From: Psammoneis japonica
Taxonomy: Eukaryota
Length of the DNA: 57,644 nucleotides
Reading direction: 5' to 3'
Assembly (NCBI GenBank): GCA_008632985.1
Contig: QPGO01000032.1
Span: 1-57,644 of the forward strand
A model generated the notes under the pieces. The model made no database searches, had not been told where the DNA came from, and worked only from the letters and a program-made list of their open reading frames with translations. Of the stretch, positions 8,500-57,644 are shown piece by piece; within the stretch, counting starts at the first letter, position 1; every line of letters starts with the position of its first letter. The translations under genes and the position numbers were made by a program.

Positions 8500-8739
8500 A
8501 GATGAGTATAATGACGATAGACTATATATGCTAGCTCTAGACCTAGAGAATGTTAAGGAAGATACCTAATAGTTTTTGCAATGAATGGAGATAGCCCGCC
8601 CACCGCCCGCGTTGCTTCCGGCGTTTTTCAACCGCGGAAAGGACCTTGTGCTTACCGCGCGACCGCCGAAGATAGAAGCGCGAAGCGGAGAGCCCACAAT
8701 GGCCTCATTCATCTCAAAAGTGCCGCAGAAGCAGCGACA

Positions 8740-18180: not shown

Positions 18181-18461
18181 CTACACTACCACTCTATCTA
18201 GCTAGGGCCCTAGAGCAGAGATGCCACGAAAAGAGCGGTTCCAGCCATCAGTGCGTTTTGGCGTTTTCGGTCAAATTCGGTGAAAAATGGAGATGGCTCA
18301 CTTGTTTCGTGGCAAAACCCCGACAAACGCACTGCCAGAAGCACGTCCGACCACAGGCTCCGCGCCGCAGCAGCCCCCAGCTCTTTGGACACACCATGAC
18401 AACCATCGCACTTACGTAGCTGTTAGAAACTTGTGCGTACCAGTGTTCAAGTTGTCGGAAA

Positions 18462-32581: not shown

Positions 32582-32699
32582 CGTGTGATACTTGCAAGTA
32601 AGTCGTTATTGTAAGGACAACAGCATGGCAAATGGCAACGCAATCATCAGCATGTAGTTATAGTCAACATCGAAAAACCACAAACCACCGTCCATCCAA

Positions 32700-34990
32700 C
32701 GTCCGTGAACGTCCGCGAAGCGAAGTTTCTCTCGCCACATTTTTGGGCCGGTGGAGCTTTTTTTTTTTCAGCACAGTGCTGCCCTGCCCTGATGCTGTGG
32801 TGGCAACTCAGCTCTCTTGATGCAAGCAGAGCAGCAAGATGCCGGACTGAGAAGGGGAGCATCAGGAAATTGTGGGGTCCAAGGAGTTGGGGGCAAGAAC
32901 ATGGCCAAAAGCAAAGATGGGCCAGCACCACATGGGAAAAAGACTGAAGCGAGAGAGGGGAGTCTGCAGCAGTCAAGTCATCCATGTGACTCCAACAGGG
33001 TGTGCCTTTTCTGTTTTTTCTTCATTTCAACCAGATGTTTGCTTCAAAACATGTCAAGTTGTGTTGACATGTTTGCCACACTGAGCCCACCTTTTTGTTT
33101 TTGAGATGTGCCACACAGACAGCGTCAGCTGAAGAGCTTCCAACACTTGTTGCAGAAGTGTGGCCTCTCATGTTTGCCTCAAAACATGTCAAGTTGTGTT
33201 GACATGTGGTGCCAGACTGAGCCTGCCTTTGAATTTCTGGCATGTGGTGCCAGATGGCATCAGTTTTTTTTTGGCACAGTTGCTCACCTTTTGCCATGGT
33301 GCCCTTTGCTGCATGTGCACACACTGTGCTGCTTGGCCAATTTCTTGACATTGCTGGGCTGAGAGGATTTCCAAGCTGCTGGCCACAGCAGTCCAGGTGG
33401 TGACTTCAAGGGATTTGAGCCTTGTGACAAAAATGGAAAATGTCATCAATTTCTTCACCTCTGTCTGTGTTTGAAAATGTGCTTGCCACGCAAGTCAAGG
33501 CTTTTGGAGTGACGCTTGTGCAGATGACTGGGGCTTTGACTTCAGTTTGTCAGTTTGCAATGTGAGCAGCTGGGGGGAGGGGGGGGGAGTGCACAGTGTA
33601 ACCTTTGCTGCTGGTGGTGACATGTGCTGCTTGGCTTCACAACAAGCAAGCATGGCTTCTTTTCACAAAAAACCACTGCAACAAGCTGCAGTTTGCAAGG
33701 GTTTGCTGCATGCAATTGCCCTGCTTCTTGTCTCCAAATTGACCTGACCACATTGCTCTTGGCTGCATTGTTCATGTTGCTGCTGTTGCGATTTGCTCAT
33801 GGCTTTGGCCACAAGTGATTGCAAGCCCTTGTTGTTTGACAAACGCTTCGCCGGCAACAACAACTGCAGCCAACTTTCATTCCATGTCTTTTCCATTGCG
33901 ATGTCAAACAAAATGCTGCAACAAGCTTCCACATCAAATGCATCACAACTCACAGCCATGCATCTGGACTTTTTTGGAGACACAAAAGGAGCTGCCCCAG
34001 CTTCCTTGAACAGTTGTTTTGTTGGCCCCTTTTTTGGCAGAGAGAACAAATGACATCAAATCTTGACATGTTGGTGCTCTTCCTCCATTTGCCCATGTGC
34101 AAGCACATTGGATGGAAAATTTCACAAGGTTGAAAGTCATTGCCTTCTGGCAGTGCAGAGATCATGACACAATGACCCCAGCCTGGCATCAGTGTGCAGC
34201 AGCATTTTCCACATGACCACCACCAATGCTGCACAAGCTCAGCTCATCCACAAGAGCAGCCACACCACACTCTCTTTTCCTCAGCATGTGGCAAAACAAA
34301 GTGGTGCTTTGCTCCTGCACATCTTTGCTTCTGCAACAGCATCATTTTGCAACAAGAGCCAAGGTGCTCTTTTGTGCAACTTGCTTGTTGTGTGGAGCCA
34401 GCTCTGCACACAAAAGGGGCAAGCACAGCCACTCGGCGGGATGTTGCCTGCTTCATTGGTGCACAGGCTCCACATGACAAGAGAATTTGTGCAGCAGATG
34501 GATTGTCAGGGCAACACACCCAAAAATGGGGTGCGAAGCTGCTGGACTGTTTGCCAACCTTGCCCTGGGAACTCAGCAGTGCTCACAACAACACATTTGA
34601 GGCCTCAGTCGGCCATGCCTGCTCAAGCCCAAATGTGTGTTGCTTTTTTCAATGGTGCAATGGGACAATTTGGGTCAGCTCCCTTTTGGAGAGCACTGCA
34701 AACATCTCTGCAGTTTCCATGCTCCAAATGAGCTTTTGGGAGTGACAGGCCAGCATCTTGGCCGGGTGTCAAAGACAGCCTGCCCCATCACATGATTGCT
34801 TTGCCATAGTTGTGACAACCAAGTGTGTGGTCTGTCTGATTGTCAAGCCAAGTCAAGCAGAAGTGTCAAGTGACACACCTCATGCCAGTTTGCAGTTTCA
34901 AGCTCTGGCAATCGCTGTTCGTGTCATCGCAGGCGTTGTCTCGGCGGTGCACCGACGTCGCACTGACAAGCTGACAACATCCACACATTT
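32700..34990. repeat. TpA/CpG-depleted degenerate repeat block containing duplicated hairpins
   Basis: About 2 TpA by eye (~33599, ~34807). The inverted repeat ACATGTCAA-gttgtg-TTGACATGT occurs twice (33047-33074, 33184-33207). Confidence 0.65.
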
Positions 34991-39810: not shown

Positions 39811-41456
39811 TGGTGCGAGATGTCGTTTCTTCGGGTCCCCACAAGACGTTCTCTGCTGCATTCGCAATGTATTCACCGAATCGATCCAAACTATCTGGTT
39901 CTGGCTTGACATTGCCGTACGGTGAGTAAATGCGTTTTCGTTTCTTCTTGGCTGTTCTTTCGTCTTGTCGTGGTGACTTTGGCTCTTCTAAAGAAGTATG
40001 CGTGGTTTGTGTAGAGGCGTCCTTTGTCTTGGGTTTGCCTGTGGACTTTCCGTCTAGACTCTTCGGAAACGACACTGTGTCCTGTGACTTTGGCGGCAGC
40101 CGTAATGAGGGCTGTTCTTTTTGCCCGACCGCGTTTCTTGTCTGTCGCTGGTCTTGGCGTGTCCGGGATTGCCTCTGTCGTGTATGAGCATTTGAGTATG
40201 TATGTTGTGCGTCGTATGGCCGAGGTCTCGGAGATGGACGACGACGACGCGGTTGTGCCGACTGTTGACGCGGCGGTATTCTTTCTACATTCTTGACTTC
40301 ACCATCCACATCAATAACAGCCGCCGTTACATCAATGGGCTCGTCTGCACTACGGTCGACCGTGTGTTTCTTGACATAGTACCAGTCCGGTTCTCGAATC
40401 AAGCCGTCGTCGCTGTCTTGGTGGCCGCCTTCCTCCTCCCACCATTCCTTTGCTTGATTGGTAACTCGTCTTGCCTTCTTGACGGCTCGCTCTGCCACCT
40501 TGGACAATCGACTGGACAGGTGCGTGTTGCTGGCAACTTTGAAACGCGGCGAGGCAAGTCTTGCGCCGTTTGCTTGGCGTTCGATGTCTTGTCCATGACG
40601 ATGTGGAGAGGCGTCTTGTTGGATTCCAATCGCATCTTGCGCTTTTGTTGTCGACGTCTCCGGCTCAACTCTTGCTGCTGCTGTTCGTCCTTTTCTGATA
40701 TTCTGGCTGATATTGAGTATGTCATATCTTGTTTTTGCTTGGTTTGGTCTTAGCTGCGTTTTTCGAGACTGGTGCACTAGATCTTCCAACATGGCACGTG
40801 TTGCTGTTGGTGGGTACACAACACCTCGTTCATCCAGCTCATCCAGCAGTTGAGGTATTGGAACTCGAGGCGAAATTACTGGTTTTGAATTTTGCTCTGC
40901 GCTGTTACGTACGGGCACCTCGGGTGGTATTGATGGCACCGCAGTGTCCTTGTTTTTCAGGAGTGCCTCCAGCTCGGCACGCGAAGCGGTTGGAGGATAT
41001 TCGATACCCCGGCAATCTAAGTCATCTAAAATCTCCTTGATTGGTATTTTCTTTATAGTCTGATGCGAAGAAGCGGCCTGTCTGCTTTGACGAACAGAGT
41101 CTCTAGCTCTGCACGTGTCACGGTAGGTTCGTATCGAATTCCTCGTTCCTCCAATTCCTGCAGGAGTTGCTGAATGGAATTTTCTTTGTTTCGAATTCCT
41201 TAGCTGCATTCTCGTCCGACACTGACATTAACAATGTTTGTCGTTGACTCGGTCTAGTGTGTACATAAACACAGCCGCCACGATCACCAATTATTGTTTC
41301 CTGGCGGACATTGCATTTCCTGCGACACAAGCATGAACGAATTCCTCTGTGCCGGATTGACGCGTTGTTTCTCGGTGATGGAACCCACGCCAAAATAACG
41401 CTCCTTTCCAACATAAGCAACACAAGCAATACCTTTAATAGTTCGAAGCTCACCAT
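39026..41456 (-). CDS. Hypothetical protein with signal peptide, two HeH/LEM-like repeats and C-terminal TM segments
   Basis: MVSFELLKVLLVLLML...LAWVP leader. Repeats IKEILDDLDCRGIEYPPTASRAELEALL and IPQLLDELDERGVVYPPTATRAMLEDLV. Intron at about 39365-39457. Confidence 0.7.
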
Positions 41457-41709
41457 GGTATACTTTCTTGCCATCGAAAGGAAGAGTGTTGCGAGAGTTG
41501 TTGCGACGCGTTGTGACACGTGTGATCGCGATGAGGCCCCATTGGCATCAGTTTCCTCGCGCGAAAATCGCGTGATAGAGAAAACTTGCCTCCGACGTCA
41601 GTCCGACGTCCGATTTCGCCGTTTCTTATATGAGTTTTTGTTTTGTTCCGGCAAAAACTTCCAATCTCTGTGGCCATGACAGGCAGCGAATAGCGGATGA
41701 CAACTTTGC

Positions 41710-43130
41710 GTGTTGATTGAAACTATTGGGGCTATAATAATGATTTGCCGCTGTTCTCATTATGGACACTTCAAGAGACTGCAGCAATGGTACCACACGC
41801 CGTCGGCTCAGGCGACAATTCTCGGCTTGGTCTTTCTACTCGTGTTTGCAGCATACTTGACGATTCAAGCTTTTGCCGCACGGACCTATGGTGATGTGTT
41901 GGCATCCAACACCACTGTAGCGCTCTATGCCGTCTTTACGGTAGCTTGTTTCATTTCTCCCAAAGTTACACTCTTGTTGGGACCTCGAAGATGCCTCGTT
42001 TATGGAATCTTGGGTTACGTCGTGTTGGTTGTAGCTTCGTTGGCGTACTTTTTGGAACTAGTCAGTCCTTCGGTTGTTATTCTTGCTGGAGCAATCAATG
42101 GAATTGGATCTGCACTCTTGTGGAATGCTCAGGGTGTCCTTATTTTACAATACTCGGACCGAGGAAGCAACGGAGGGACCCTGTTTTCCATTTTTTGGGC
42201 ATTCTTCAACGTTTCAGCCATTGTAGGAGGACTCGTTTCCTTTTTCTATTTTCATAATGATGACGAAACAAGCGGACTGACGACATTGTACGTCATCTTT
42301 TTGGGGTTTATCCTGGCGGGTGCACTCTTATCCAAACTGCTCCTTGCTCCCAACGTGCTGAATTCTGCGGGAGCAGAGTCGGAGAGTATGAACACGTCTG
42401 AGAACTCCCGCCTCGTTCCGCCAACAGAGGAAGCCTGTGTTCATTTGGAAATCAATAGCCCAAATGAAAAAGAGGACTGCAAGACACTAGACTCGTTTGG
42501 CATGCGCTCCATGACCATGCTCTTGCTTTTGTTCTTCTACACGGGTTTCAAACAGCCGTACCAACTCGTCACCTTTGGTGATCGGTACTTTAATGACGCA
42601 ACCTTGGGTTGGAGGTTGTACTGTTTTACTTTTTCAACATGTTAGGTGGAATCTTGACGGGCCGTTTATTGGACGGTGGCTTTGCAACAGTGTACAATCA
42701 TCGCTCTGTCGCCATTCACTGCTTGGCAATCTTTGTTGGGATTACGGCTCTTGGGAATCTTTCCGCCTTGTACCAAGAATGGCCATGCAAAGACGCTCAA
42801 GACGATGCGATGTGCGTCGTGGCGCTAGACTACAGACAAGGGCAGATTTGGATTCCAACCCTGGCATACATTTGTTGGGGTATCACCGACGCCGTTGTGC
42901 AGACGTATTGCTACTGGCTCATGGGTTTGAAGTGTGACTCGCAATCCAAGCAGTCCGAGGCGATTGGCTTTTACGTATGTGTACAGAGTCTTGGGTGGTG
43001 TCTTGGATTTCTTGCTCTACCGGCAAGCCGAATGAGGCCCGTTACACAGCTCATGTGCACCGTGTTTAACTTTGTTCTGGGGACGGCGATGGCACTGGCG
43101 GAGTTGCCTCGACGAACGAATCCTACATGA
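41710..43130 (+). CDS. MFS transporter, UNC-93-like; frameshift at ~42610
   Basis: About 12 hydrophobic helices. LGPRRCLVYG, GIGSALLWNAQG, GTLFSIFW. Confidence 0.82.
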
Positions 43131-43381
43131 AGTACATGCGCTGGATACAGCTTGCAATGGAACCACCACTTATCTACGGCACGCATTTATATACTTCTGA
43201 AGGGCTTCATTTTAAAGTTTACGAAAAGCAACAAGTATGATGGTTGCAAGTGAACCAGCAGCTCCTTGAGCTCAACTTTCATGCGGCCCCCCAAGACACA
43301 TATTACGGGATGAAAGCACAAGAGAACCGCTCGCCCTTCGTCAAAAGGCTGAGTCGCTCTCTGGTGTGTCCATAAACTAAA

Positions 43382-45722
43382 TTAACGGTCCACTCTTTCG
43401 ACGTCGATACAAGCCGAACCGATACTAGGGATTCTTCTGTATGATTCCAAGACAGTCTTAGCTACGGCTTGAGCCATCTTGACGGGCACCGCATTTCCAA
43501 GCTGCCTTCTCTGCTGCTGCCTTGAGCCATAGAGGACAAAGCTGTCCGGAAAAGAAAACAACCGTGCAATTTCACGACATGTCAACTTCCTATCGAGCTT
43601 GTAATGCCACACGTCTTCGCTTGTGCAAATGGTAGTTGACGGACTGTTGCCATCAATTCGTTTGTCGTCGGTACTCATTTCCTGCTCACTGCTTTCGTGG
43701 TTGTGAACAATCCCGTTTCCCAGCTTGACAAGCCCACCGCGATGTGGAGGTGTCGTCTCCAAGTCCACCAAAGCCTGTTGAACCGTCACATGATGCTTCG
43801 GTGTTCCTGGTCCGTGGGTTTCCTGTGGTCGCTTGGGAAGAGGGAATCCAGCTTTTGCGATGAACAAGAACAACCGAAAACGCGTTTGCGGATCACCGTA
43901 GTCAGCAGCGCAAAGCTTCGTTACTCGGACCTGGTAATTCATAGCGAGCAAATCGCAAACTAGTTTGATCAAGTGTTCATGGTTCGATTCTCTAAGCATG
44001 CCCGAGACATTCTCAAAGGTAGCTGTCGTTGGCTGAAAATGTTCTACAGCTCGAGACAGACAATGGCAAAGAATATTGTTTTCTTCGCGATCGTCATCAG
44101 ACCCAAGAGTGTTTGCAATTGAGTAGCCTTGACAAGGGGAACTTGCATGTATATGGTCGGGCTCCTGAGAACGAAAAGGGACAAGGAGGTAAGCAGTGCA
44201 TCAAACAACACACAATGAAGCAGGCACTTTAGATACCTCTTGGGATGGATAGCCTGGCTGGCCATTTTCGCAATCTTCGAGAAATTCGTTCGAGTCGCGA
44301 GCGTAAGCGATTCCTCGAGTAGCAAGAGAAGCTTGTAAGTTGACGTCCTTGTCTACCATCCAGCTTGCACCGAAGCCTTCTCGCTCGAAACCGAGGCTCA
44401 TGCCGCCTACGCCTGAGAACAACTCGAGCACTACATGGATATTGAGATGGTCAGATTTCGACGACATGAACGGTAGCACTCCAAAGACTTTACTCGCTTC
44501 ACTCACCTCTGGGCTTCTGTACGGCGCACTGTTTCATTACTTCCTTATCAATTTTTGTCTCGAACGCAAAGTCAAAGTTTGACTGTCTGTGAGTTTCAGA
44601 AGTGAACTGAAAACCTGAAGGAGTGCGCTGCTCTAGTGCTTCCGCCAAATCAAAATAGTCCGGAAACGTTTGTTTACGCAAGGTTCTCGCTTCCTCAATT
44701 ACAGCAGGGTTAAGATCCTCGTCTCGAACCCACGTAAGCTGCTTGTAATCGCCTTGCCATTTTATCTTGTATTCCCATTGACCTTGACGCCGCTGTCTGC
44801 AATCAACGACTTCTTCGACTTCGTATACATCAGAATGGTCTGTAGTCAAATCGTGTCTCGTACCTTGAATATCACTCGAATCTGCAGTGTCCCAATTTGG
44901 ATTCTCTGCCTTTTCCTTCGTCTTGCGTTTCTTTGTTTTCCCGGCGCCGTCAGTGTCACTTGTATCCATAGCGTCGCGTTTTACACTCTTGCCCCTTTTG
45001 GGTTTTGGTAGTATTTTTGTTTTCCTGGTGGCTGCAGTGCCGGTTGCAGCTGCAGAGTCTCGTTTTACACTCTTGACCTTTTTGTTTGCCGCAAGCTTGC
45101 TTGTTTTCGCTGCATCCTTCTTTTCTTTCGGCGGTCGGCGTCGACGCAAGAGATGACCCTCAGTAGCCGACGAATCATGCACCTCGTCACATGGAAGAAT
45201 AGCATATTCACCGAGGACGCCTTTCCTTACACCGTCCCATCTAACAAGCACCTCGTCCGCAGCCACAACGAGGGGCAAGCGCAAGGCGGCCAAATCCACT
45301 GTAGAAGGATCGACGACAGCACAAGTATAGCCCTGTTTTGTCGTAAGCACTGCGCCGGGCGTGAAGGAACTTTTCTTAGATTTGAATTCTTGAATTGATG
45401 CAACAGCCTTGATATCTTCAATCTTTACTTTCTTTCTCTTCTTTGCTTGCTTCTTTCTTGACTTGAGAGGCTCTTGTTTGATTTTCTTTTGCTCAAACCC
45501 TAGCTTCGTTGGGGGTTGCCTCTGTCGGGACGAGCGACTGTTCAACGATGGAAGAACCACCGCACTCTCCTGTACGACATTAATTGTGTTTCTCCACGGA
45601 GCCTCTTTGTACTTGACAAGCATCTGACCAGGTTCAAGGTCATACTCCTTGTGCAAAGCAGGATCCACAGTGATAGCCGGGTGAGCACTTTCTACGAGTA
45701 CTTCAGTGCCATGATCCATCAT
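43382..45722 (-). CDS. Chromodomain-containing C5 cytosine DNA methyltransferase, RID/DNMT4-like; exons 44507-45722, 44237-44430, 43382-44164
   Basis: Chromodomain YEVEEVVD...EYKIKWQGDYKQLTWV. Motif I LELFSGVGG, IV HASSPCQGYS, VI FENVSG, VIII PQTRFR, IX RKLTCREIARL, X QLGNAVP. Introns 44431-44506 and 44165-44236 give an intact frame. Confidence 0.92.
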
Positions 45723-46029
45723 GGTGTTTCGGCTTGGCGTAAGATAGGAAAGATACTCAGCACTCCAGTAGCAGGCTTATCGGTAGTTCCCCAGTTACTA
45801 GTCACTCAATGACAGAGCGCAGAGCGCGAGATGGGAAACGCAAATTCAACCCCCGCCCTCTGACTGAGCCGCACCGTTAGCTACAACAAGGAGCGTAGCG
45901 TATCTTTTTAGTTTATGGTCCGGTCACGTAGGTAGCTCCGAGTTTATGAAAAAAAAAGAGAGGAAAAGGAGGAGGGGAGGAGAAAACGCCATACGTTCAA
46001 TTCGCACGTACGACGGACAGACGTTTTAC

Positions 46030-48090
46030 GACATTCATGCTGCTGCAACAAAAACAAACCAACCATGATGCGGCAACAACCGATGTTTGATCTTGCCACC
46101 AAACCTTTTCCTGCCAAAAATGTCAATGCATGACATCCACATTTTGCTGTGACAAGTGTGTCAATTGCAAGAGACGTGAGAGAAAACCCAAAAATGAACA
46201 ACAAAAGCTCCTTCCTGCAGCTGTGCCGCTGCCCAGACTGCACATTTTCACAACTTGCACAGCAACAGCCAATGTTCTGTTTTTGCTGCCAAACCTTTCC
46301 TGCCAAAATTGCCAATGATCAGCATGCTGTGCTGTTTCTCTTTGGCAAGTGCGCCAGCGAAAAGAGAGGCACAGCAGGAAAAAACCCAGGCAAGCGGGGC
46401 AAACGCAAAGGCCCTTTGCGCGGTTTTGCCACAAGGCTCAGGCTCTCAGCTCTCACAGCTTGTGCACTTCAATTTGAGTTTGCACTTGGCAGATTGAAGG
46501 CTGACTTTCAGCAATCAGGTGTCAGGTTCTGCTGTCACACTGTGCCTGTGAGCAGCAGCGCCAAGGTTGCTTGGCAATCCAGCAGCCAGCTCTCTGTGAA
46601 AAATGGTTGCAAAAGGAAAGGATCTGCCTGCTGCAACACAAGAGACAAGCAATCAAGAGTGCATTTTCCTGTGGTTTGGTGTCAAAGAAAATGTGCTTGT
46701 TTGTGGTGCTGTGCTGGCAAGGCCAGCTGCGAGGCACAGCCCAGCCAGCCAGCCGCCGCCAGCACAGCCAGTGGGTGCTGGCCTCCTCTCATGATGTTGG
46801 CATTGGGCCACATCATGCAGCTGTGCCACCACAGTCAAATGACATTTCTGCCAGCTCTGCATGAAAAAATGATTGCAAAAGGAAAGGAGCCATCTGCGGC
46901 GCAAGAGACAAGCAGCCGCCAAGCTCCCCCCATGGCGGCGGGCTGCTTGAAGTGCTGCAGCAGCTGTGCTCTGTGCTGGCCATCCAACAGAGATGAGTGG
47001 ACCACAATGTTGGCTGCAAGATGAAAGGACTGTGTTGGTCACAACTGGCGCCAAACAAGTGCGGGAAATTTTCCTTTCATCCGAGGGAATTTGGGGGCTG
47101 CTGAGAGAGGAGCCCCCCCCATGACCCAAAACCCCGCTCATGCTCACATCTTGATTTCCCCCTCATTGGCTTGTCAAATGAAGAAAACAATGAGGCTTTC
47201 CTCTTTTGTTTTGTTGCACAATGTGCACCAGATTTGCCACACCAATTTGAGCTTTTGTGGGCTTGCTTGGAGCAGATCACACTTGAAGAGACCATGGAAG
47301 CACATCTTTTTGTCCTTGAGAAAGTGCCTCCCAATGGTGCCTGCCTCACTCACTGAGTGCATCACACAAAAAGAGGTGTTTTGGCAGCCAAAGGCTCTGT
47401 GCAAATCAACTTCTAGATGAGTGGTTCATGATGGTTGCAACCACGCATTGAATCACTGATCTGTTTTTTCCTTTTCTCATTTTCTTGCATTTCCTTGTCT
47501 AGGAAATTCAGCGCCAAATGAGGAATTCCCTGTGATCGAAAACCTGTGACAACGCGGTGATTGGCACGCTGACAATGATTCCGTCTGTGGCGTCGCTGTC
47601 AAATTTGCACTGGAAAACCATGTGGGTTTCTGCTTGTCGCTGTCAAAATGGAATTGTGTCATTGTCAAATTCTGCACAAACCCTGGTGCATTTCCTACAC
47701 AGTTTATAAAGAGCTGCCTGCGCAGCTGGACGATTGCCGTTTCCTGCACGAGGCATCGAAAAAAATGTGGCCGCAACGTGAGCAAAGACTTCACAACACA
47801 TAATTTGCGTGTGCAGAGTTAAAGACACATTTTTCGTGCATTTAGTTGTTCAAACATGAATTTACTGTGCAAGGTTTTGGCGGGAAATTTTGTGTTAGAA
47901 TTGGTTCCTCCTTTGTGGTGGGAACTCTGGACACGAAGTGAGGAGGTGTGGAACCCGGGCTGGTTTGGATTGCCATGCGCGCGAGCATCAAATTTTAGAG
48001 CTTTGATCTTTACTTGCCACCAATCATTTTTTAAAAAATTCTCACGCTTAAATGATGGGTTCGCAATCAATCAATGTGCGACGTAATTCT
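46030..48090. repeat. TpA-depleted repeat block with internal imperfect direct repeats
   Basis: 46070-46130 resembles 46260-46320, and 46587-46652 resembles 46852-46915. Almost no TpA before ~47400. Confidence 0.6.
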
Positions 48091-48428
48091 ATGTTTATGT
48101 TTTAATGTTATGTCAAAAAATGGCGATTTAATTATTGTATAAGTGTATGGATATATTATAATAAGAGACGTGGGTTTCCCCTTCTTTTTGATAATTCTGG
48201 TGTGATCGTTCTATGGTAGATGATAAGAGAACTGTCCTGACGTTGTGTGTCACTGGTTGCTGAGTGTGTCTGTCATTGTAATAATGTGCTGACATCGATT
48301 TATTAGATTAGACCCTTTGTTTTCTATCGGTTGTTGCCGGGCACGCCTGCAAGCCCGCGCACAAAGCTTGGAACATTTTCCAAAATGTAGAAATGATTCC
48401 CACATGCAGTGTCAAAATGTTCCATGTG

Positions 48429-51400
48429 TCAATTGGACTGCAAAATGTCGTCACACTGTTCGTTGGTGAAGCATGTGACACTTTTTCCTTCCATCAACCG
48501 GAGCAGGGTGTCATGCCCGTCCGGCAGTCTGCACAGACTTAAATCTCTCTTCAGCGGTTGCCGAAGATGCAGACCATTTCTGGTCTTGACCCTGGAGAGC
48601 ATGACATGTGCCCAGTTTTGTGCACAGCTCCAGCTGTGTACAAACACATTGTGACACCGCTTCCTTGAAGCTTGTGTCCTGCAGTCGCATTGTTTGTTGT
48701 GAATGGCAATTGGGTCACTTTCAGTCCGAGCACATGTTTCTCTTTTTCCTCAGCTGTCATCTGTTGGGTTGGGTCCTTCAAACAGGCTTTGAAAGTGGAA
48801 GACTTAGGCTTGAGCAAAAAGGTGGGTGGATCGATGCTTTTGTTGCTGTGCTTGAGTTCTACATTGTCCACCTGGGATGCTGTGACACCTCGAATGGATG
48901 TTCCACAGTCCAAGACCACTTGCGATGAATGTTCTCCTGGTTTCAGCACGACTTTTGCCACAGTTGCTTGTGTTCCATTCGCAATGCCATTTGCCACATT
49001 TTCATTGCACGGGATCACAACTCTACATCCCTTGTGTGTTCGTAACACTGGATCAAGCCTGCCAGATTGCATTTCCACATCGCTCTCTCCACAGTTTTTC
49101 CAGAATGTTTTGTGCACCGGGAAAGGCCTGTGCTGTCTTGCTCCGTCACGCACTTGTAAATCGTCACTGAAAATGGCTAGAGAGTCCAAGACTTCTCCAT
49201 CTCTTTGGTGCAGTCTCTTGGTCCTTTCCTCAAACAAGGCTGTGTTGATGGAGTCTCTTTCTTTGTTTCTGCATGGTGCACATTTGATGTTCTCTGGCAG
49301 TTGCTGACCCTTTCTTGCTGCTCTTTCATTGATTTTGTCGACATCTTCGAGAGTCGCTTCGCCATCTCTAAATCGTTTTAGCAAACTGCCCCATTCTGGA
49401 TCCTCACTGAATCTGTGCATCCCATGCAACTGGATGTGGCAGTTCACCCATTCCTGGAATTCGGCACAGGTCTCCTTGTGTGGAGGGTGCATTCCGTGTC
49501 CAACTGGCTCGAGTTGTCTTAGGTCCCCTGCAAACACCATGTCCACACCCCCACAAGGCCTGTCTAAATTGGATTTCACGACAGATAGATTAGCATGTAA
49601 TTTTTCTAAATCTCTTCTGCAAGCAAATGACATTTCGTCGACAATCAGCAGACGAGTGTCACTCCAGCTTTCCATTTGTGTTTCTGTTGTTTCTTTTTTC
49701 CTGTTTGGATGGGCAACTCTGTGAATGGTGTCTCCTTTCAGAATTGTCGCTGCAACTCTGGTCATGGCAGTGACAGCAATTGTTTGTGCAGTGAATGGTC
49801 GTTCAATTAAAGAGCAACATTCTCTTGCGTGCAAAACAACAAGATCGATGACAGTGGATTTGCCACTTCCTCCTGCTCCATGCAAGAAACAAATTAACTG
49901 TGTGCCTCTTCGTTCTCGCACTTCAACTAACTTGGCTAATCTCCTGCATTCTTTGTTAAATTCGTGTCCAATTCCTCCTCTTACATTGCCACTTGCTTGT
50001 TCTCCCAGAGCGTCTTTGCAGCACGTCAAAATGAAAGTTCCTGCCATGACTTCAAAAGCACGACTTTGATGTGGGTCTAGCTTGGCTTTTTTTGACCAAT
50101 CAACTGAGCTTTTGGCTGAGCCGTCAGCTTCAAGGACATCAACGGCTTCTTCCGAATTAGTTGTGTCTTGGAAAGATCGTCGAATGCGTCCAGTCTTGGT
50201 CAGCAACACTCGAACTACATCTCGTTTCCTAATTTGAGGCATGGGTTCTTCATCTGCTTGCATGCTGTTTTCATTGTCTTCTTCATTGACCTCAATTTCT
50301 GGTGGCTCCATTGTTTCTACGACAGGGACCGAATTGATGACAGTGTTTTGATCTGAAGAAGCCATGCACATGCATGCCAAGTGCTGACATCCTGCAAGGT
50401 GACTTCCCTTCTGTCTGGTTTGTTTGCCACTTAAATTCGTGGGTGCGGCTGCTTCATCATTCGCTTCTGTCCCGTCTTCGTGTTCATGGTTCACCAATTC
50501 ATCTAGAAGAGCATCAAGCATTTGTCCTTGCAAAGCCGTTCCAATGTCGTCTTCGGTGTCGCTTTCGCACCTTGCACTAAATTCATCATCGTCCGATGCA
50601 TGCTCACGGGTGGTGCGTTTGAGAAAATCTGATGTGCTTTTTAATCGCAGACAATTGGATTTTGCATCTTGCAGATTTTGCAAGAATTTCAGATTTCTTC
50701 AGTGACGATTTCTCTCTCCACCGCTTGACGGAATGATTGCAAGCAGGTTTGATCGAACAGTCGCACATCTGAGGCAGTCCGACATGATGTGAACAAAGCA
50801 AGAGCTGGCTTGCAACATGGCTCTTTTTCAGGCAAGGATGGTGCATTGCTGTCCATGAGAGAACTGCCGAATTTTGCTGCATCTGGGAAATCACACTGGT
50901 GTGTCTTAACCAAGCGAGTGTCTTGTCTTGGTTTGATGCCTTGCAGAAATCTGTTTGATCTTCTTTGACAAGATGGATGGGTGCAGGTGGAGTTGTCGAA
51001 TTGGCAAAGAAGACCTTCATTTTTCTTGGCATTTNNNNNNNNNNNNNNNNNNNNNNNNNNNNNNNNNNNNNNNNNNNNNNNNNNNNNNNNNNNNNNNNNN
51101 NNNNNNNNNNNNNNNNNNNNNNNNNNNNNNNNNNNNNNNNNNNNNNNNNNNNNNNNNNNNNNNNNNNNNNNNNNNNNNNNNNNNNNNNNNNNNNNNNNNN
51201 NNNNNNNNNNNNNNNNNNNNNNNNNNNNNNNNNNNNNNNNNNNNNNNNNNNNNNNNNNNNNNNNNNNNNNNNNNNNNNNNNNNNNNNNNNNNNNNNNNNN
51301 NNNNNNNNNNNNNNNNNNNNNNNNNNNNNNNNNNNNNNNNNNNNNNNNNNNNNNNNNNNNNNNNNNNNNNNNNNNNNNNNNNNNNNNNNNNNNNNNNNNN

Positions 51401-54297
51401 NNNNNNNNNNNNNNNNNNNNNNNNNNNNNNNNNNNNNNNNNNNNNNNNNNNNNNNNNNNNNNNNNNNNNNNNNNNNNNNNNNNNNNNNNNNNNNNNNNNN
51501 NNNNNNNNNNNNNNNNNNNNNNNNNNNNNNNNNNNNNNNNNNNNNNNNNNNNNNNNNNNNNNNNNNNNNNNNNNNNNNNNNNNNNNNNNNNNNNNNNNNN
51601 NNNNNNNNNNNNNNNNNNNNNNNNNNNNNNNNNNNNNNNNNNNNNNNNNNNNNNNNNNNNNNNNNNNNNNNNNNNNNNNNNNNNNNNNNNNNNNNNNNNN
51701 NNNNNNNNNNNNNNNNNNNNNNNNNNNNNNNNNNNNNNNNNNNNNNNNNNNNNNNNNNNNNNNNNNNNNNNNNNNNNNNNNNNNNNNNNNNNNNNNNNNN
51801 NNNNNNNNNNNNNNNNNNNNNNNNNNNNNNNNNNNNNNNNNNNNNNNNNNNNNNNNNNNNNNNNNNNNNNNNNNNNNNNNNNNNNNNNNNNNNNNNNNNN
51901 NNNNNNNNNNNNNNNNNNNNNNNNNNNNNNNNNNNNNNNNNNNNNNNNNNNNNNNNNNNNNNNNNNNNNNNNNNNNGCCACAAACTCTGGGTTTGTCCAG
52001 TGTTTAGTGCAATGAGGGCAATGTGCGAACATGCCGTTTTTTGATTTCTGACCATGCTTGTGCCTTGGGCATCGAAGCTGCTGATCACTGACTGTTTTAG
52101 GCACAGTGCGACAGGCAAGATTGACAGTGCAATCATGATCAAAAGTCTCTGTGATGGAAAGTCGAGTGTAATCCTCGCTGCATGTCAACCCAGTTGTGCA
52201 GATCCGACTGGTCAGTTTGGATGGTGTTCTTTTACCATCACGCCTAAAATCTCTGTTGTCAGAATGCAGATTGTCTCTTGCTGTGTTCATGTCTTCAAAC
52301 CATGCCTGAATGTGACCGTGTGCCGAGAGTCTACCTTGTTCTTCCATTGCAGCCATGAAAGCGGAGGGTCTCCCCATGTAGAACTCAAAATCTTCTCTGG
52401 GTGAATTCCTTTTTAAGTCCCATCCCATTGCTTCTTCTATGACGATTTCCAACAACATTTCGAATGCAAAAGCCATGACACCCGGGTGCTCCACACGAAG
52501 CTCGTTTCTTGCCTCAGCCTTTTCGGTTGGTTCTTCATCCGACATTTCTGTCACATCTCTGCCTTTGTCGACGAGCATGTCCGTGTGAATTTGAGCTAAA
52601 AAGGAACTGGCATCATCGGGGCTTGTCGTTAAAAATGCTCCAGGTTGTCCAAAGTGGCGTTGGCAGGTTTCAGCATTTCTTCTCATTTTTTTTGCTGCTT
52701 CATTTGCATGTGGAACAGATGCCGACACCACATCCACTGCACTTAAGAAACGATGTCCCAATGCGCAATTCCTGCGTTCACCGGTCTGTCTGTCACACAT
52801 GGCACGGTCGACGTCGTCTTGTGTCAGTTCATTTGAGAATTGTCTGGCTTGATTTTTGTCTCTTGCTTTCCATCCAGCACTGTGCACCATTCGTTGCTTC
52901 ACAGTCAGATTGCACAGGGTCAGAACAAAGAGTTGCTTGTGGAAATGGGGCTGAGAAATGCGGGCCAAGTGATCTGCGCAATGTGCTAGATTTGTGCAGT
53001 CGGCGAGACTCCCGTCTTCTTTCATTCTTGTTTCATTGATGCCGCCACGCCCACAAGGAAATTGCAGCAAGCAAGCATTCACCAGGTTGTTGTCCTCAAA
53101 GTCACTGACTGATTCTTTCAAAAGATCAGCTTTGAATTCAATGTCAAAACCGCTTGCAGCTGCATCGTGCACCAAGTCTTTGAAGCTGTCTAAATTGCGT
53201 TGTCCACCAGTTGTTGAAGAAACGGTGCCATCGGGGAAATGAACACTGCAGGACTCCGTGGTTTCAACGTTTGCATTTTCGCTTTCGTCCAAACTGCTGT
53301 TGTCCACTAAAACTGGATTCTGTAAATTACTTCGCACTTCCTCTAGATCGATGTCTTGATTCATCCAATTCTCGCGGTGATGGACAAGCCATTCCAGTGC
53401 TCTCATTACACAGTGAGTCCTGATTTTGTTCTTTTGTCTGGCCATTTGCCTTTGCTCTGGTGTCATTTTGCCGGACACCAACACAACCACATTTTGATGA
53501 AGGTTCAACACGTCAAAGTGCACAATGGTGCGGGCGATGCTCTTCATGTTTATCTTGCAACAGGAAAGACTGCCTTGCAGTTTCTTCTGTTTGCCACCGA
53601 CAAAACTGAAGCAGCAGCCATGTGTTTTCACAGGTGTCAACAAAGCCAGTTCTGCTTCGGCAAGACACGATAATTCAGGTGGTGGTGTTCCAAAACAGCA
53701 ATTATTTGCCATTGCGCATGGAGGCACAGAAGTGGTGCAGAGACTCCTTTTACAAGGCCTGCAACAAGTGAATCCTTCAGACCTTCTGTTGTCGTTCGGA
53801 ACAACACATCGAGCTCTTGGCAAAAGTGACAGGTCGGAAATCCATCGGCAATCCCGTGGAATGTGGTCGTCATCAATGCGACAACAATCGTGTGGGTCTT
53901 CCGACACTTGGTTCCATTCAGATGGAGTTGACAGGTGTCTGGCTTCTTTCAATTTATTGACAGAAAGTCGAGCAGTCTGAGACGGTTTCAACAATCTGTC
54001 ACACACCAAACAAACCCAAGGGACGCACTCGTTTCCATTCCTGCAACAAAGCTTCTCAAAACGTCTGTTCACATTGTCTCGGTGCCTGGTGTTGCTGTCA
54101 TCCACAAGACAGCTTGCAACGGCAGGCTCACACTGCGCAAAGACAAGTTGAACCAACAACGCAGCAACAGGTGCACACCAGATAACACGACGACCCATGA
54201 GACTTGTGATGAGAACAATCTGAGTAAAGTCAACATGATCAACAGATGGTGGACAATCCGACCTGCAACTGGTGTTCCCAGTCACTGCAGGGTCCAC
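48429..54297 (-). pseudogene. Helitron RepHel (HUH endonuclease plus PIF1 helicase); frameshifted, with assembly gap 51035-51976
   Basis: Rep motifs PGAFLTTSP and EEQGRLSAHGH. Helicase motifs GAGGSGKS, LIVDEMS, AGDLRQLEPV, MHRF, GHKLQG, HVMLSRV. Confidence 0.92.
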
Positions 54298-55182
54298 TTC
54301 CAGTGTTTTCTGGACTCAGCAGACGAGTGTGTGTAACAAATCTTCAGCATGTCAAGAGTGCAATGAACAATGATGAATGCGACATGACAAATCTGCAACC
54401 GGTGTTTCCCGGTCTCTGCAGACTCTGCGACCAGTGCATTCTGGTCCCCGCAGATGTTGTCTCAGCTGCAACTGGTGGTGCTTTGTGTCGAGATGGCTGG
54501 AGAGTCTTCCTTTGCAAAAGTTCAGATCTCATGAAAAATGAGGGTTGAAGCAAACTTCCGTGCATGATTGACGGACCCGACACGTTGTAGATCGCTCGTC
54601 TTGATTTACTTGACACGTCATCGTTTGCTCGTGCGTTCTACATTGGGATGCACTGCTGACAGCAGCGGCATCACACCGGTGAGGTTATGAACGTCAGCGG
54701 GAACGATGTCTTGTGGAAGTTCAATGTGCGATGATGCATCTCGTAGTTGAAGTCGGTTCTACCCACTGCGACTGTACGACGTTTGTGCGACTGTGACGCC
54801 TCACACCTCGATCTGCTGCCAAGTGTAACAGATGTGTGTTGTTGCAGTGTGTCCTCATGATCGGCACGTTCCTTTCATCCCACTTGTGAATCATGTCATC
54901 TCGCAATGCATGCACTGACATTGAATCATTCGAGTGAAAAGATTCCAAATTTTAGAAAGATTTCCAGCCACACCTTTCTTTCGCACAATTTTACGTAGCC
55001 TGTCATGCTGGTCCTTCTTTCCTGCGTCTCGCAGTGGAAATTGTACGCAACATGAGTGACGTGCCCACACGACCGTTGCTGCACGACCGCTGCTGTGTCA
55101 GCTCTTCGTGGGAGCTCAGTGACTGGTGACCTTGTTTTTGGCTCACAATTTTGTGCCAATCAACAACGAAAGACTTTGTAAG

Positions 55183-56052
55183 ATGGCCCGTAAAACGCAA
55201 GGTTCTACCAAGAAGTTGGGCGCTTCTCCAACCAAGAAACAGCAGTCTCCCATCAAGTTTTCTGCTTCCCTCATGAAAAAAATTACCCCTGCCAAGACCG
55301 TTGGTCTCAATGATGAAGATGTGAAGGCCGAAGATTTGTTGGCCAAGACGGGCATCAAGGTTACGAAGGTGTCTGGTGGTGCCGCAAGCGACACTGCCAG
55401 CAAGGATGCTAATCTACGAGTGGCCAAGATCACCGAAGGCAGCAAGCAAGGCTTGGCATTCCGTTTGGAGCCCAAGGGGACAGGTGACCCCTCCGGTGTG
55501 TGGGCAGAGAAAGTGTTTTTTGATGCCATGCGCTCAGGCAAGTCTTGGGTTGCCAATTCAGGGTTTGTGCCGCACACCAAGCAGTGGCACCACAACAACG
55601 CATCGATGAAGAATGGAAGGGATTGCTCCATTCGTCTCTTCGTGATTTACGTCGAGGAGACCCCGTCCGATGAACAAGTCAAGATGTTAGCCAAGTGCAT
55701 TGCTGCCAAGTTGAACAACGACCCGGACGACAACACTGCCGTTCACATTGAGGACGACTGCATCTGGATCCAGGATGGTGTGTGGGCCGATGTGATTGGC
55801 AACGACCAGGCTTTAACGGAACTCCATAAGGAGGGTGGTGACTTCCACTTAGGATGGCATGAGCAGCACAAGAACTTGCTTCACAGTTGCCTTCGAACGG
55901 GAACCTTGACCATGGATTTCTGCCGCATGATTGGTGCTCCAGCAGACGAAGCGGCTGAGGATCTTGATGAGGAAGATGGGGTGTTGCACGATGACCAGAT
56001 GTCTGATGACGAGGAGAACGACTTGCTGCTTTGCGACAGCGACGAGAACTGA
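55183..56052 (+). CDS. Unknown protein, divergent from RepHel; probable Helitron accessory or captured gene
   Basis: Open 289-aa frame with a Lys-rich N-terminus and acidic tail, inside the TpA-depleted domain. Only one Tyr. Confidence 0.55.
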   Translation: MARKTQGSTKKLGASPTKKQQSPIKFSASLMKKITPAKTVGLNDEDVKAEDLLAKTGIKVTKVSGGAASDTASKDANLRVAKITEGSKQGLAFRLEPKGTGDPSGVWAEKVFFDAMRSGKSWVANSGFVPHTKQWHHNNASMKNGRDCSIRLFVIYVEETPSDEQVKMLAKCIAAKLNNDPDDNTAVHIEDDCIWIQDGVWADVIGNDQALTELHKEGGDFHLGWHEQHKNLLHSCLRTGTLTMDFCRMIGAPADEAAEDLDEEDGVLHDDQMSDDEENDLLLCDSDEN

Positions 56053-56463
56053 GACATTTTTCCCCGGTCTGGCCTCCGCTCTTTAGTGCGCAGTGCAGCA
56101 TGTAAATGTTTAGTCCATTTGGTCAAACATTTTTTTTATTTACTTGGCAAGCAAGACTTGCATTGCGTGCGACTGTGGCAAATCGTGCACATTTAAATTA
56201 TGCACTTAGCAGTCATTGAATGCTGCATTCGTAGCCGGCTCGTTTTCTGCATGATTTCAAAATCAATTGGCACTCGTGTCTCAATTGTTGTGCACATCTC
56301 TTTTCTGACAGTGATTTCAAAATGTCATGTGTTTGGCCTGCCTGACTTGCATTTCCGGTTGTTTCCGCAAAGTCTGCTTTTCAAACTTTGTGCCAGTGCA
56401 CAATTCACCAAATGAGACTGAGTTGCCAATGCACGGCCTCAGCATGGCAGTGAGCCAGTGATG

Positions 56464-56750
56464 AAGCCATCCCACTAAGAGACCCAGCCCGGTGTTCACA
56501 CCTCAGACCCATCTCCTCTGGAGACCAGTCCACTGTGGCACCAGTGTCGCGGCCAATCTCATTGGGTCACTTTTTGCTGCTCCTTGCNNNNNNNNNNNNN
56601 NNNNNNNNNNNNNNNNNNNNNNNNNNNNNNNNNNNAGCCATCCCACTAAGAGACCCAGCCCGGCATTCATGCCTCAGACCCATCTCCTCTGGAGACCAGT
56701 CCACTGTGGCACCAGTGTTGTGGTTGATCTCATTGGGTCACATTCTGCTG
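56464..56750. repeat. Direct repeat, two copies of about 115 bp flanking an N gap
   Basis: agccatcccactaagagacccagcccgg...ctcattgggtcac occurs twice. Confidence 0.85.
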
Positions 56751-57038
56751 GTGCTTGGTGGTCACAGGGTGCAGTTGGCAATTGCAGGGTGCAGGGCACA
56801 GCAAATGCAGGGTGCGGCAAGAACCGCACAACTCACCGGTGCCATGAAAATGTGATGCATCAACACGGCAAGGGACACTGATGAAGTGGTCCCACACAAG
56901 GACCCAGCACACTGTGCCTTTCCCTGTCACATGTGTTTTGAGTGTGCAGTGGCATTGCTGCATGCTGCAGTTGTGGCCGTTGCTGCCGGAGGCTGGGAAA
57001 ATTTTCTTTTTTTTTGAACAAATCCCCCCAACATGTGA

Positions 57039-57290
57039 CACGTGCAAATCCTGCATGTCGTTCCTCACAACCCCTGTCAATGGCTCACTCGTTCGTGTGT
57101 GCAACACATGTGCGGAGTGCAACAGGGAAAAGATTCCTCTGTACGGTGCACAGCACAGCACTGGTTTAACATGTGATGCAGTGCTGCACTGCACGTGCAA
57201 ATCCTGCAGGTCGTTCCTCACAACCCCTGTCAATGGCTTGTTCGTTCGTGTGTGCAACACACACACGGAGTGCAACAGGGAAAAGATTCA
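57039..57290. repeat. Direct repeat, two copies of about 100 bp
   Basis: cacgtgcaaatcctgca...gcaacagggaaaagattc at ~57039 and ~57192. Confidence 0.9.
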
Positions 57291-57644
57291 TGCGGTGAAC
57301 CACAGCATTGGTTGATGCACGACACTGGATGAAAAAAAAATGGCACCACAAGATGTGCCATGAGTCACCCCAATCAGTCCGGCAAAGACAATGCCACCCT
57401 TGCGTCGCTTGGGAAAATGGTCGCTGTGAAAACAAGCTCCAATTGTGGGGGCAGCTTCATTCACACCTACAAGGCTCAGACGCCTTCTTCGTCGAGAGTT
57501 GCGGCACTGGCACATTTGATAAACAGAGAACCCGTAGCTAACGAAGGCAAGTGGTCTGCTGAAAAGATGATGCATCGAGCCAACAAAAAGGCTGCAAAGA
57601 TCGAAAGTCTAGAAGAACTGCCTGCACAGCTTGCGCGTCATTTC

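Follow-up and report, generated by a model that had tools for sequence, protein, structure and literature searches.

Context-dependent loss of TpA in a Helitron and neighbouring repeat-like blocks of a diatom: a chemical mirror of fungal RIP

In mutation-accumulation lines of the chlorarachniophyte Bigelowiella natans, two integrated viral regions mutate about 1000 times faster than the genome, and 230 of 231 mutations are A>G or T>C changes, all of them at TpA (Mettrop et al., 10.64898/2026.01.13.699255). The same preprint describes 124 clusters of TA-poor, CA+TG-rich windows that are enriched in transposon domains, and its authors propose an ADAT2-like adenine deaminase. A second point of reference is fungal repeat-induced point mutation (RIP), a genome defence in which repeat-directed transitions at one dinucleotide, on both strands and with sharp edges, skew the dinucleotide spectrum. 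Here we analyze a 57,644-nucleotide stretch of contig QPGO01000032.1 (Psammoneis japonica, assembly GCA_008632985.1), referred to below in its whole length as the window, in which a Helitron transposon copy and at least six other blocks, presumably repeats, appear to have been targeted at TpA. That the loss is mutational, specific to TpA and faster before a pyrimidine we hold with high confidence; the fuller account, in which adenine deamination on DNA is the cause, strikes us as evenly poised. New here are TpA hypermutation in a diatom, its action on transposons, a graded rule for the 3' neighbor and a parallel decay of CpG.

The likeness to B. natans is extensive: TpA is converted to TpG or CpA on both strands, the change is confined to foreign or selfish DNA, and low TpA goes together with high CpA+TpG. 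The hosts differ, a diatom (Stramenopila) in one case and a chlorarachniophyte (Rhizaria) in the other, as do the targets, which are a Helitron and multi-copy repeats here and single-copy inserts of nucleocytoplasmic large DNA viruses (NCLDV) and virophages there. Depletion is deeper in the window, with observed/expected (o/e) ratios of 0.00-0.2 and TA-free runs of up to 1387 bp against a Rho of 0.45 reported for the B. natans NCLDV insert, and CpG is lost in parallel, whereas the B. natans main text presents a process essentially without C>T. The 3'-neighbor rule appears to be unreported for B. natans, since the main text of the preprint is silent on flanking bases and on CpG; its supplements may hold such data. 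Our literature searches returned no diatom report of TpA hypermutation and, as the sole account of such a process, the B. natans preprint of 2026; the main text of a diatom transposon preprint (10.1101/2025.10.24.684338) contains no reference to dinucleotides, TpA, CpG, hypermutation, deamination or Helitrons. With RIP the comparison runs the other way. RIP turns CpA into TpA by C>T, so that TpA rises and GC falls; here TpA turns into CpA or TpG by A>G and TpA falls. In place of the TpA excess of RIP we find TpA o/e ratios of 0-0.2 and CpA/TpG ratios of 1.5-2.0, and between two copies of one element compared below (L026 and L050) GC rises from 37.7% to 45.5%, opposite to RIP. Chemically, the process mirrors fungal RIP.

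The affected blocks lie with sharp edges within genic DNA. In them TpA and CpG are almost gone and TpG/CpA is doubled: the extremes in 500-bp windows are 0.00-0.10 for TpA, 0.07-0.4 for CpG and 1.7-2.05 for TG/CA, against o/e ratios of ~0.56, ~0.98 and ~1.17, respectively, in the genic surroundings. Stretches of 1387, 1208, 938 and 879 bases are free of TpA. If all TA (~0.6) and all CG (~1.0) were converted, half each to TG and CA, then TG and CA would climb from ~1.2 to ~2.0 and GC would stay almost unchanged; the TG/CA ratios observed match this arithmetic and therefore fit conversion. One of the blocks is a Helitron and the others carry no recognizable domain; toward the host genes the edges are sharp.

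The Helitron is read on the minus strand. Its helicase half (48551-50698, minus strand) is a mutated PIF1-like pseudogene (Pfam PIF1, E=1.8e-14; AAA_30, E=6e-12) whose frame is open because TAA and TAG stops have been erased, and its Rep half (51977-54315, minus strand) matches DUF6570 (E=6.6e-15) and Helitron_like_N (E=8.8e-11). A Rep domain and a PIF1-like helicase thus stand in one reading direction, separated by a frame break near 50690 and by an unreadable run of N (51035-51976, no strand assigned). Over 48400-54300, which holds 4959 non-N bases, the o/e ratios are 0.17 for TpA, 0.60 for CpG, 1.70 for CpA and 1.48 for TpG. The best relatives, 46-50% identical, come from metagenomes, and the family as a whole is not TA-poor: TpA o/e is at least 0.5 in 67 of 80 related metagenome loci.

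What the element has lost can be read from its proteins. For each half we built an alignment with homologues, of 49 and 59 sequences respectively, and took as conserved those columns in which at least 60% of the homologues agree. Tyrosine makes up 0.1% of the helicase half against 3.1% in 48 homologues, and 0.3% of the Rep half against 3.2%. None of the 12 conserved tyrosine columns of the helicase is kept (5 Cys, 6 His, 1 Leu), and all five of the Rep half are now Cys, encoded by TGY. Taken together, 0 of 17 conserved tyrosines survive, whereas among the remaining conserved columns 423 of 557 are kept (p=7e-11); the replacing codons are TGY in ten cases, CAY in six and TTA in one, so that in 16 of 17 columns a conserved TAY codon has become TGY or CAY (Y, pyrimidine; R, purine). 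Given the frame break at ~50690 and the replacement of every conserved tyrosine, the copy is evidently dead. The same comparison bears on the idea that nothing mutated and that the blocks simply keep the native TA- and CG-avoiding composition of foreign or selected DNA. For the blocks outside the Helitron this idea can point to the lack of an ancestor and to the absence of a credible Pfam match in any of their 104 open reading frames (ORFs). It does not explain why conserved tyrosines gave way to one-step products of TAY when most relatives are normal in both TA and tyrosine, nor the directionality of the L026/L050 pair (79 forward changes, 0 reverse) or the CA<->TG double differences between copies described below. 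For the Helitron it appears already contradicted, and as a general explanation we regard it as almost certainly wrong. Judged by these alignments, the loss of TpA is mutational.

Copies of the region point the same way. Contigs from a public sequencing run that contains the stretch (X1) were aligned on 46000-57644 at a likeness of at least 80%, giving 1415 contig pieces, of which 1034 are below 99% alike; this indicates that many diverged copies exist. Only piece number and likeness were used, as summed depth is no copy number, and two further runs (X2 and X3), with 1 and 0 aligned pieces, were not used. Between these copies and the window, transitions account for 398 of 451 variant places (88%, unpolarized). 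At least ten adjacent CA<->TG double differences occur among the 40 of 457 variant places that were listed, and such doubles are what would be expected as the trace of independent changes on opposite strands at an ancestral TA or CG. X1 may derive from the same sample as the window and is no independent confirmation of its base calls, which matters for one alternative explanation, namely that in heavily modified repeats an intact TA with a modified base is miscalled and appears as TG or CA. Modified bases can give systematic miscalls on some long-read platforms, and the platform is on record neither for the window nor for X1. Against this, 71% of the sampled 31-mers of 41000-50990 are found in X1 contigs (the longest of 315 kb), and contigs built from 31-letter words need accurate reads; the signature also recurs in metagenome contigs from several unrelated assemblies, and in B. 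natans it was seen in Illumina data (10.64898/2026.01.13.699255). A sequencing artefact is therefore very unlikely in our view.

The direction of change is most visible in two environmental copies of one element. Scanning metagenome contigs with the helicase alignment gave the 80 related loci mentioned above, mostly of ordinary composition, and two of them, L026 and L050, align over L050 1-2465 and L026 967-3486. Their first ~1300 bases differ at one position, and the next 1.1 kb is 13-20% divergent. In this diverged part L026 is ordinary (TpA 0.99, CpG 1.07, GC 37.7%) and L050 carries the signature (TpA 0.16, CpG 0.59, TG 1.84, CA 1.70, GC 45.5%). L050 keeps 11 of the 97 TA sites of L026, shows TG at 45 and CA at 34, and has no change in the reverse direction. 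From L026 to L050 there are 104 A>G/T>C changes, 83 of them at TpA, against 21 G>A/C>T changes and 40 transversions; the changes are thus dominated by A>G and T>C. Of the pair, the outgroups L027 and L029 cover in alignment only the near-identical part (99.6% identity), so that polarizing the diverged part with them was given up; in the near-identical part, four of five differences polarize as A>G/T>C in L050. The switch from identity to divergence is abrupt, as at a sharp hypermutation edge inside the element or at an assembly join between copies.

Not all TpA sites are lost alike. The initial annotation had proposed that the TpA dinucleotides surviving in the Helitron are mostly YTAR and that RTAY is essentially absent, and the counts bear this out: the 58 TpA left in 48400-54300 comprise 33 YTAR (TTAA 10, CTAA 11, TTAG 7, CTAG 5), 14 YTAY (CTAC 5, TTAC 5, TTAT 3, CTAT 1), 10 RTAR (GTAA 6, ATAA 2, ATAG 1, GTAG 1) and a single RTAY (GTAC 1; ATAT, ATAC and GTAT 0 each). 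It had also named a shared YTAR bias in genes, or a loss independent of the flanking bases, as outcomes that would speak against it, and neither is found. Across the non-block, genic DNA (40294 bases, 1553 TpA) the bias is opposite to that of the Helitron, with YTAR at 235 (15%), YTAY at 480, RTAR at 373 and RTAY at 465 (30%). The Helitron departs from this background (chi-square p=3.3e-17) and from a 1:2:1 expectation (p=9e-9). The 68 TpA of six other TA-poor blocks (YTAR 24, YTAY 25, RTAR 15, RTAY 4) depart from the background as well (p=3.4e-7). Replacing the background by 34 unmutated relatives of the Helitron family (8487 TpA) leaves the result unchanged; in a wider set of 67 control loci the class fractions are 0.17/0.28/0.23/0.32.

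A strand-symmetric model with four parameters, in which the two strands are hit independently and the rate depends on nothing but the base 3' of the adenine, accounts for all 16 NTAN counts, with a deviance of 6.4 on 12 degrees of freedom against 125.2 for a single rate. Fitted to all blocks, the rates are 2.31 for T, 1.16 for C, 0.44 for G and 0.05 for A, a spread of roughly 40-fold in the window. The order is the same when the Helitron is fitted alone (T 2.30, C 1.28, G 0.17, A -0.30) and when the other blocks are fitted alone (T 2.29, C 1.06, G 0.62, A 0.31). Palindromic sites need no special protection, since 18 TTAA are observed where 19.6 are predicted, and 10 CTAG where 10.9 are. The rule is therefore graded, T > C > G > A, and the pyrimidine/purine switch implied by the earlier TAY->TGY target, with RTA->RCA as its opposite-strand equivalent, is not seen; the target itself and the independence of the strands find support in survivors, products and polarized events alike. 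The corollary that YTAR is hit on neither strand holds only in part: such sites are slow, but they are not immune, with 15 of 23 lost in L050.

Other environmental copies permit the rule to be examined outside the host. TA-poor loci include L005 (7761 bases; TpA o/e 0.03, CpG 0.30), L022 (2786 bases; TpA 0.05, CpG 0.14) and L016 (from about base 500; TpA 0.09, CpG 0.46), followed by L054 (TpA o/e 0.19), L050 (0.35), L046 (0.36) and L002 (0.37). The first three show that the signature occurs in other genomes too, and their 35 surviving TpA sites give the order of the window (T 2.14, C 1.61, G 1.18, A 1.02). In L046, pyrimidines exceed purines. In L050 the survivors are 8 of 23 YTAR, 0 of 31 YTAY, 3 of 21 RTAR and 0 of 22 RTAY, and the hits per strand by 3' base are 29 of 53 for C, 22 of 43 for T, 14 of 45 for G and 14 of 53 for A (pyrimidine versus purine, p=7e-4). 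Unrelated environmental copies of related Helitrons thus show what is evidently the same rule. A further TA-poor locus, L018, was set aside as a replicate: with 55% GC, a CpG o/e of 1.24 and uniformly low TA it looks like a different base composition and not like hypermutation.

Survivors alone leave the polarity of the change open, and here the products are informative. Among the replaced tyrosine codons, those after a 5' pyrimidine became Cys five times and His once, and those after a 5' purine became Cys five times and His five times. The initial annotation had remarked that the Tyr->His change in helicase motif VI follows a purine, as the proposed target predicts; five of six His changes do, but the pattern generalizes weakly, as the table, in the predicted direction, is not significant by itself (p=0.31). 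With strands pooled, the product trinucleotides TGC and TGT are enriched 1.98-fold and 1.47-fold over the background expectation, compared with 1.26-fold for TGG and 1.09-fold for TGA. We also mutated background sequence in silico under three models, and the log likelihood is -9494 for TAY->TGY, -9540 for a flat rule and -9600 for the mirror rule. The TAY->TGY simulation yields TG/CA ratios of 1.63/1.66 (observed 1.65/1.73), lets ApT fall to 0.83 (observed 0.79) and gives a GpC of 1.11 (observed 1.26). Between L026 and L050, YTAY sites turned into TG 20 times and into CA 8 times, and for RTAR sites the numbers are 6 and 12 (Fisher p=0.016). The tyrosine codons, the products with the simulation, and the pair together therefore favor TGY over CAY, and support a target of TAY->TGY, equal to RTA->RCA on the opposite strand, with the strands hit independently.

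The same events can be written from the thymine. In this alternative an enzyme modifies or oxidizes T in R-T-A, for example a TET/JBP-type hydroxylase producing 5-hydroxymethyluracil, and mispairing with G or repair to C then gives RTA->RCA. Being strand-symmetric, the data treat A>G at T-A-Y and T>C at R-T-A as identical; the strict neighbor would be the 3' A and the graded one the 5' purine. In dinoflagellates, 5-hydroxymethyluracil is found preferentially in TpA. Excision of a modified T, on the other hand, should yield transversions as well, which are rare here (53 of 451 places in X1, 40 of 165 substitutions between L026 and L050). Moreover, the known sequence-selective modifiers of DNA bases are mostly strict on their 5' neighbor, APOBEC enzymes acting in TC/CC (PMC10960570), DddA in TC (PMC10442228) and TadA in UA (PMC12296453), so that a strict 5'-T before the adenine fits better. 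We consider a thymine lesion rather unlikely.

CpG is lost together with TpA in every block. Over nine sub-blocks the two losses correlate (Spearman 0.80, p=0.01), with CpG survival ranging from 0.18 to 0.84 and CpG loss being the slower of the two by a hazard ratio of 1.6 to 5.3. Loss of CpG in the blocks and in L050 means that an accompanying C>T excess is present. Surviving CpG sites depend little on their flanks over all blocks (deviance 16.0 against 21.5 for the null); a flank rule for CpG loss was considered and dropped, since the signal is weak and the Helitron and the remaining blocks do not agree on it, and none is claimed. Diatom transposable elements are methylated (Hoguin et al. 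2023, PMC9998398), and the simplest reading is that CpG loss would be a separate process, deamination of 5-methylcytosine in methylated repeats, running in the same domains; a single agent may also account for both losses. Decay of 5-methylcytosine in methylated transposons resembles the blocks in its low CpG o/e (0.07-0.7 in the blocks), its gain of TpG/CpA and its small flank dependence, but it covers only the CpG half of the signature and cannot remove TpA.

One way to tie the two losses to a common setting is an over-active repair of T:G to C:G, by a TDG/MBD4- or Vsr-like enzyme recruited to methylated chromatin and converting T:G replication errors at TpA as well. The co-variation of the losses suits this, and CpG decay does imply cytosine methylation. 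Very-short-patch repair of Escherichia coli depletes CTAG, and it is alike in being a methylation-tied activity that converts TA to CA/TG within a context. The analogy breaks down in its detail: CTAG, the classical victim of that pathway, is a survivor here (10 observed, 10.9 expected), and CpG decay is much slower than the process in the window. The loss of TpA exceeds that of CpG in speed by a factor of 1.6-5.3, which is hard to obtain from rare replication errors, and an efficient activity of this kind would be expected to spare CpG, which is nevertheless lost. In B. natans, too, a rate about 1000 times background, switched on in only some lines, resembles an induced enzyme (10.64898/2026.01.13.699255). 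Repair of this kind is in our opinion unlikely.

The signature looks like the footprint of a DNA-editing defence enzyme, and our best guess at its nature would be a DNA adenine deaminase that requires a 5'-T. The A of TpA becomes G on either strand, so that TpA turns into TpG or, from the other strand, into CpA. RTAY, hot on both strands, disappears first, and YTAR, slow on both, remains. The agent, a nucleic-acid adenine deaminase acting on DNA, would convert A to inosine, which is read as G. Its requirement for a 5'-T would parallel that of TadA/ADAT-type enzymes for a 5'-U, and its targeting would be to repeat chromatin that is silenced and cytosine-methylated. CpG decay in the same domains would be ordinary deamination of 5-methylcytosine, and both losses would proceed for as long as the sequence stays in that chromatin state.

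As for a candidate family, native TadA depends on UACG, and the evolved TadA-8e prefers UA without a downstream preference (PMC12296453). The strict 5' U/T of TadA/ADAT enzymes has its counterpart here (83 of 104 changes at TpA), and TAC is a fast site in the window and the fastest in L050. As for the downstream base, C(G) in native TadA, the window runs T 2.3 > C 1.2 > G 0.4 > A 0.05 and L050 shows 29 of 53 for C and 22 of 43 for T. The link to TadA/ADAT is one of resemblance and not of membership. A different deaminase route leads through RNA, with ADAR-like hyperediting of double-stranded repeat RNA followed by reverse transcription. A Helitron, being a DNA transposon, has no RNA intermediate, and ADARs accept A as well as U before the edited base and favor G on its 3' side; here G and A are the slow 3' neighbors and the specificity for TpA is almost absolute (83 of 104). 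Sharp-edged non-coding blocks are affected too. In favor of this route stand the A>G changes on both strands and a preference of ADARs for U before the edited A, as stated in the B. natans preprint (10.64898/2026.01.13.699255). On balance we judge RNA editing highly improbable.

Several observations weigh against a DNA adenine deaminase with the TAY target. Survivor counts are strand-symmetric, so that A>G and T>C at TAY look alike in them, and the evidence on polarity comes from smaller samples, namely 16 tyrosine codons, 46 YTAY/RTAR events in one pair, and a simulation that fits imperfectly (chi-square 122.9 on 15 degrees of freedom) because genic DNA only proxies the ancestor. Within the L026/L050 pair, the diverged part is without an outgroup and its polarity is taken from composition, the contigs come from different assemblies so that the switch to divergence could be an assembly join, and the order is C >= T, unlike the T > C of the window. 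Strand-coordinated runs in L050 are not significant (35 runs against 39.7 expected in a runs test), which offers no positive indication of a single-strand deaminase working processively. Among the environmental loci, L002 follows the rule only partly (T 0.67, A 0.33, C 0.26, G -0.04), and two are off it: L054, with 22 TpA of which 2 are YTAR and 14 YTAY, and L018, with 81 TpA, no context effect and a CpG o/e of 1.24. TAT is faster than TAC in the window, unlike in native TadA, and such an order is undocumented for the TadA family. No deaminase was found among the window ORFs scanned. Finally, the coupling to CpG loss is unprecedented in B. natans, where the main text of the preprint reports no C>T excess.

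The comparison with B. natans widens the phenomenon across the SAR (Stramenopila, Alveolata and Rhizaria) supergroup and extends it to ordinary transposons. The flank rule provides a quantitative footprint, and an enzyme proposed as the agent, be it a deaminase or a rival, has to yield it on TAT, TAC, TAG and TAA. As a tentative suggestion, which we put forward with less than even confidence, a dedicated DNA adenine-editing defence might be common to diatoms, chlorarachniophytes and perhaps many protists, with an enzyme that recognizes 5'-T-A-Y-3' and is brought to its targets by the repeat or heterochromatin mark that also recruits cytosine methylation. If this were true, selfish DNA would be driven from TA and CG into TG/CA, and the graded TAT>TAC>TAG>TAA footprint would serve as a fingerprint for finding the enzyme. 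There is also a practical consequence: with TAA and TAG stops erased along with tyrosine codons, mutated repeats carry false long ORFs in all six frames, which can mislead gene prediction in such genomes. In the window, 37 stop-to-stop ORFs of at least 100 amino acids, from several of the six frames, overlap 46000-57644; they are no evidence of genes, the long open frames in mutated blocks existing because TAA and TAG are erased.

The blocks, none of which has a strand assigned, are distributed as follows. The first (1-1775) is cut by the window start and has a TpA o/e of 0.00-0.07 up to about 1500. Two more hypermutated blocks were placed by dinucleotide o/e mapping at 17089-18413 and 28600-30069. 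Almost saturated are 32661-34807, with 2 TpA in 2147 bases and a TG/CA o/e of ~2.0, and 46027-47414, which spans 1387 bases between consecutive TpA; in the latter, survival relative to background density is 0.03 for TA and 0.32 for CpG, and no Pfam domain was found. The last TA- and CpG-poor, TG/CA-rich block (48400-57644) includes the Helitron and extends to the window end, with o/e ratios in 500-bp windows of 0.05-0.32 for TpA, 0.25-1.08 for CpG and 1.4-2.0 for TG/CA. A self-comparison of the window showed that the blocks are not copies of each other and detected only short tandem repeats and two gene-region duplications; among 104 ORFs of at least 70 amino acids in the blocks other than the Helitron, Pfam gave no credible match, the one hit being DUF7916 at 18 bits against a cut-off of 27. 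These other blocks are presumably repeats. Between the last two mutated blocks, 47500-48400 has a near-normal CpG o/e (0.90-0.93) and a partly lowered TpA (0.25-0.63), and many X1 contig pieces still align there; it could be a repeat of more recent origin that inserted into older, mutated DNA.

The surroundings are compact eukaryotic DNA of ~48% GC. They encode an ATM1/ABCB7-type transporter (8557-10788), ornithine-monooxygenase-like and UNC-93-like proteins and a C5 DNA methyltransferase. The host is taken to be a diatom (Stramenopila) because the closest named relatives of the transporter are all from diatoms: Fragilaria crotonensis (70%) and Seminavis robusta (69-70%), with further relatives in Ditylum, Attheya, Thalassiosira, Chaetoceros and Nitzschia. 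The top match overall is 78% identical, and none recorded is identical. The genic part contains two local duplications, 4959-6250/7152-8444 (1.3 kb at 68% identity) and 37112-37875/38832-39819 (~0.7 kb at 82-93% identity). Both are normal in TpA and CpG, and duplication alone is therefore no trigger there.

Adjoining the block that begins at 46027 is an apparently intact gene (43385-45776, minus strand) with an N-terminal chromodomain (24.5 bits, Pfam cut-off 25.1) ahead of a C5 DNA methyltransferase domain (E=4.6e-36); a separate short exon (44533-44204) carries motif I. Diatom DNMT4 enzymes are related to fungal RID, and nine have an N-terminal chromodomain (Hoguin et al. 2023, PMC9998398); the architecture of the gene matches this type, of which it is a putative member. 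A last compositional feature concerns GpC, whose o/e is 1.26 in the blocks and 1.02 in the DNA around them, with 1.57 for L050 and 1.19 for L026; a model of TAC->TGC/GTA->GCA conversion accounts for only part of this rise (predicted 1.11).

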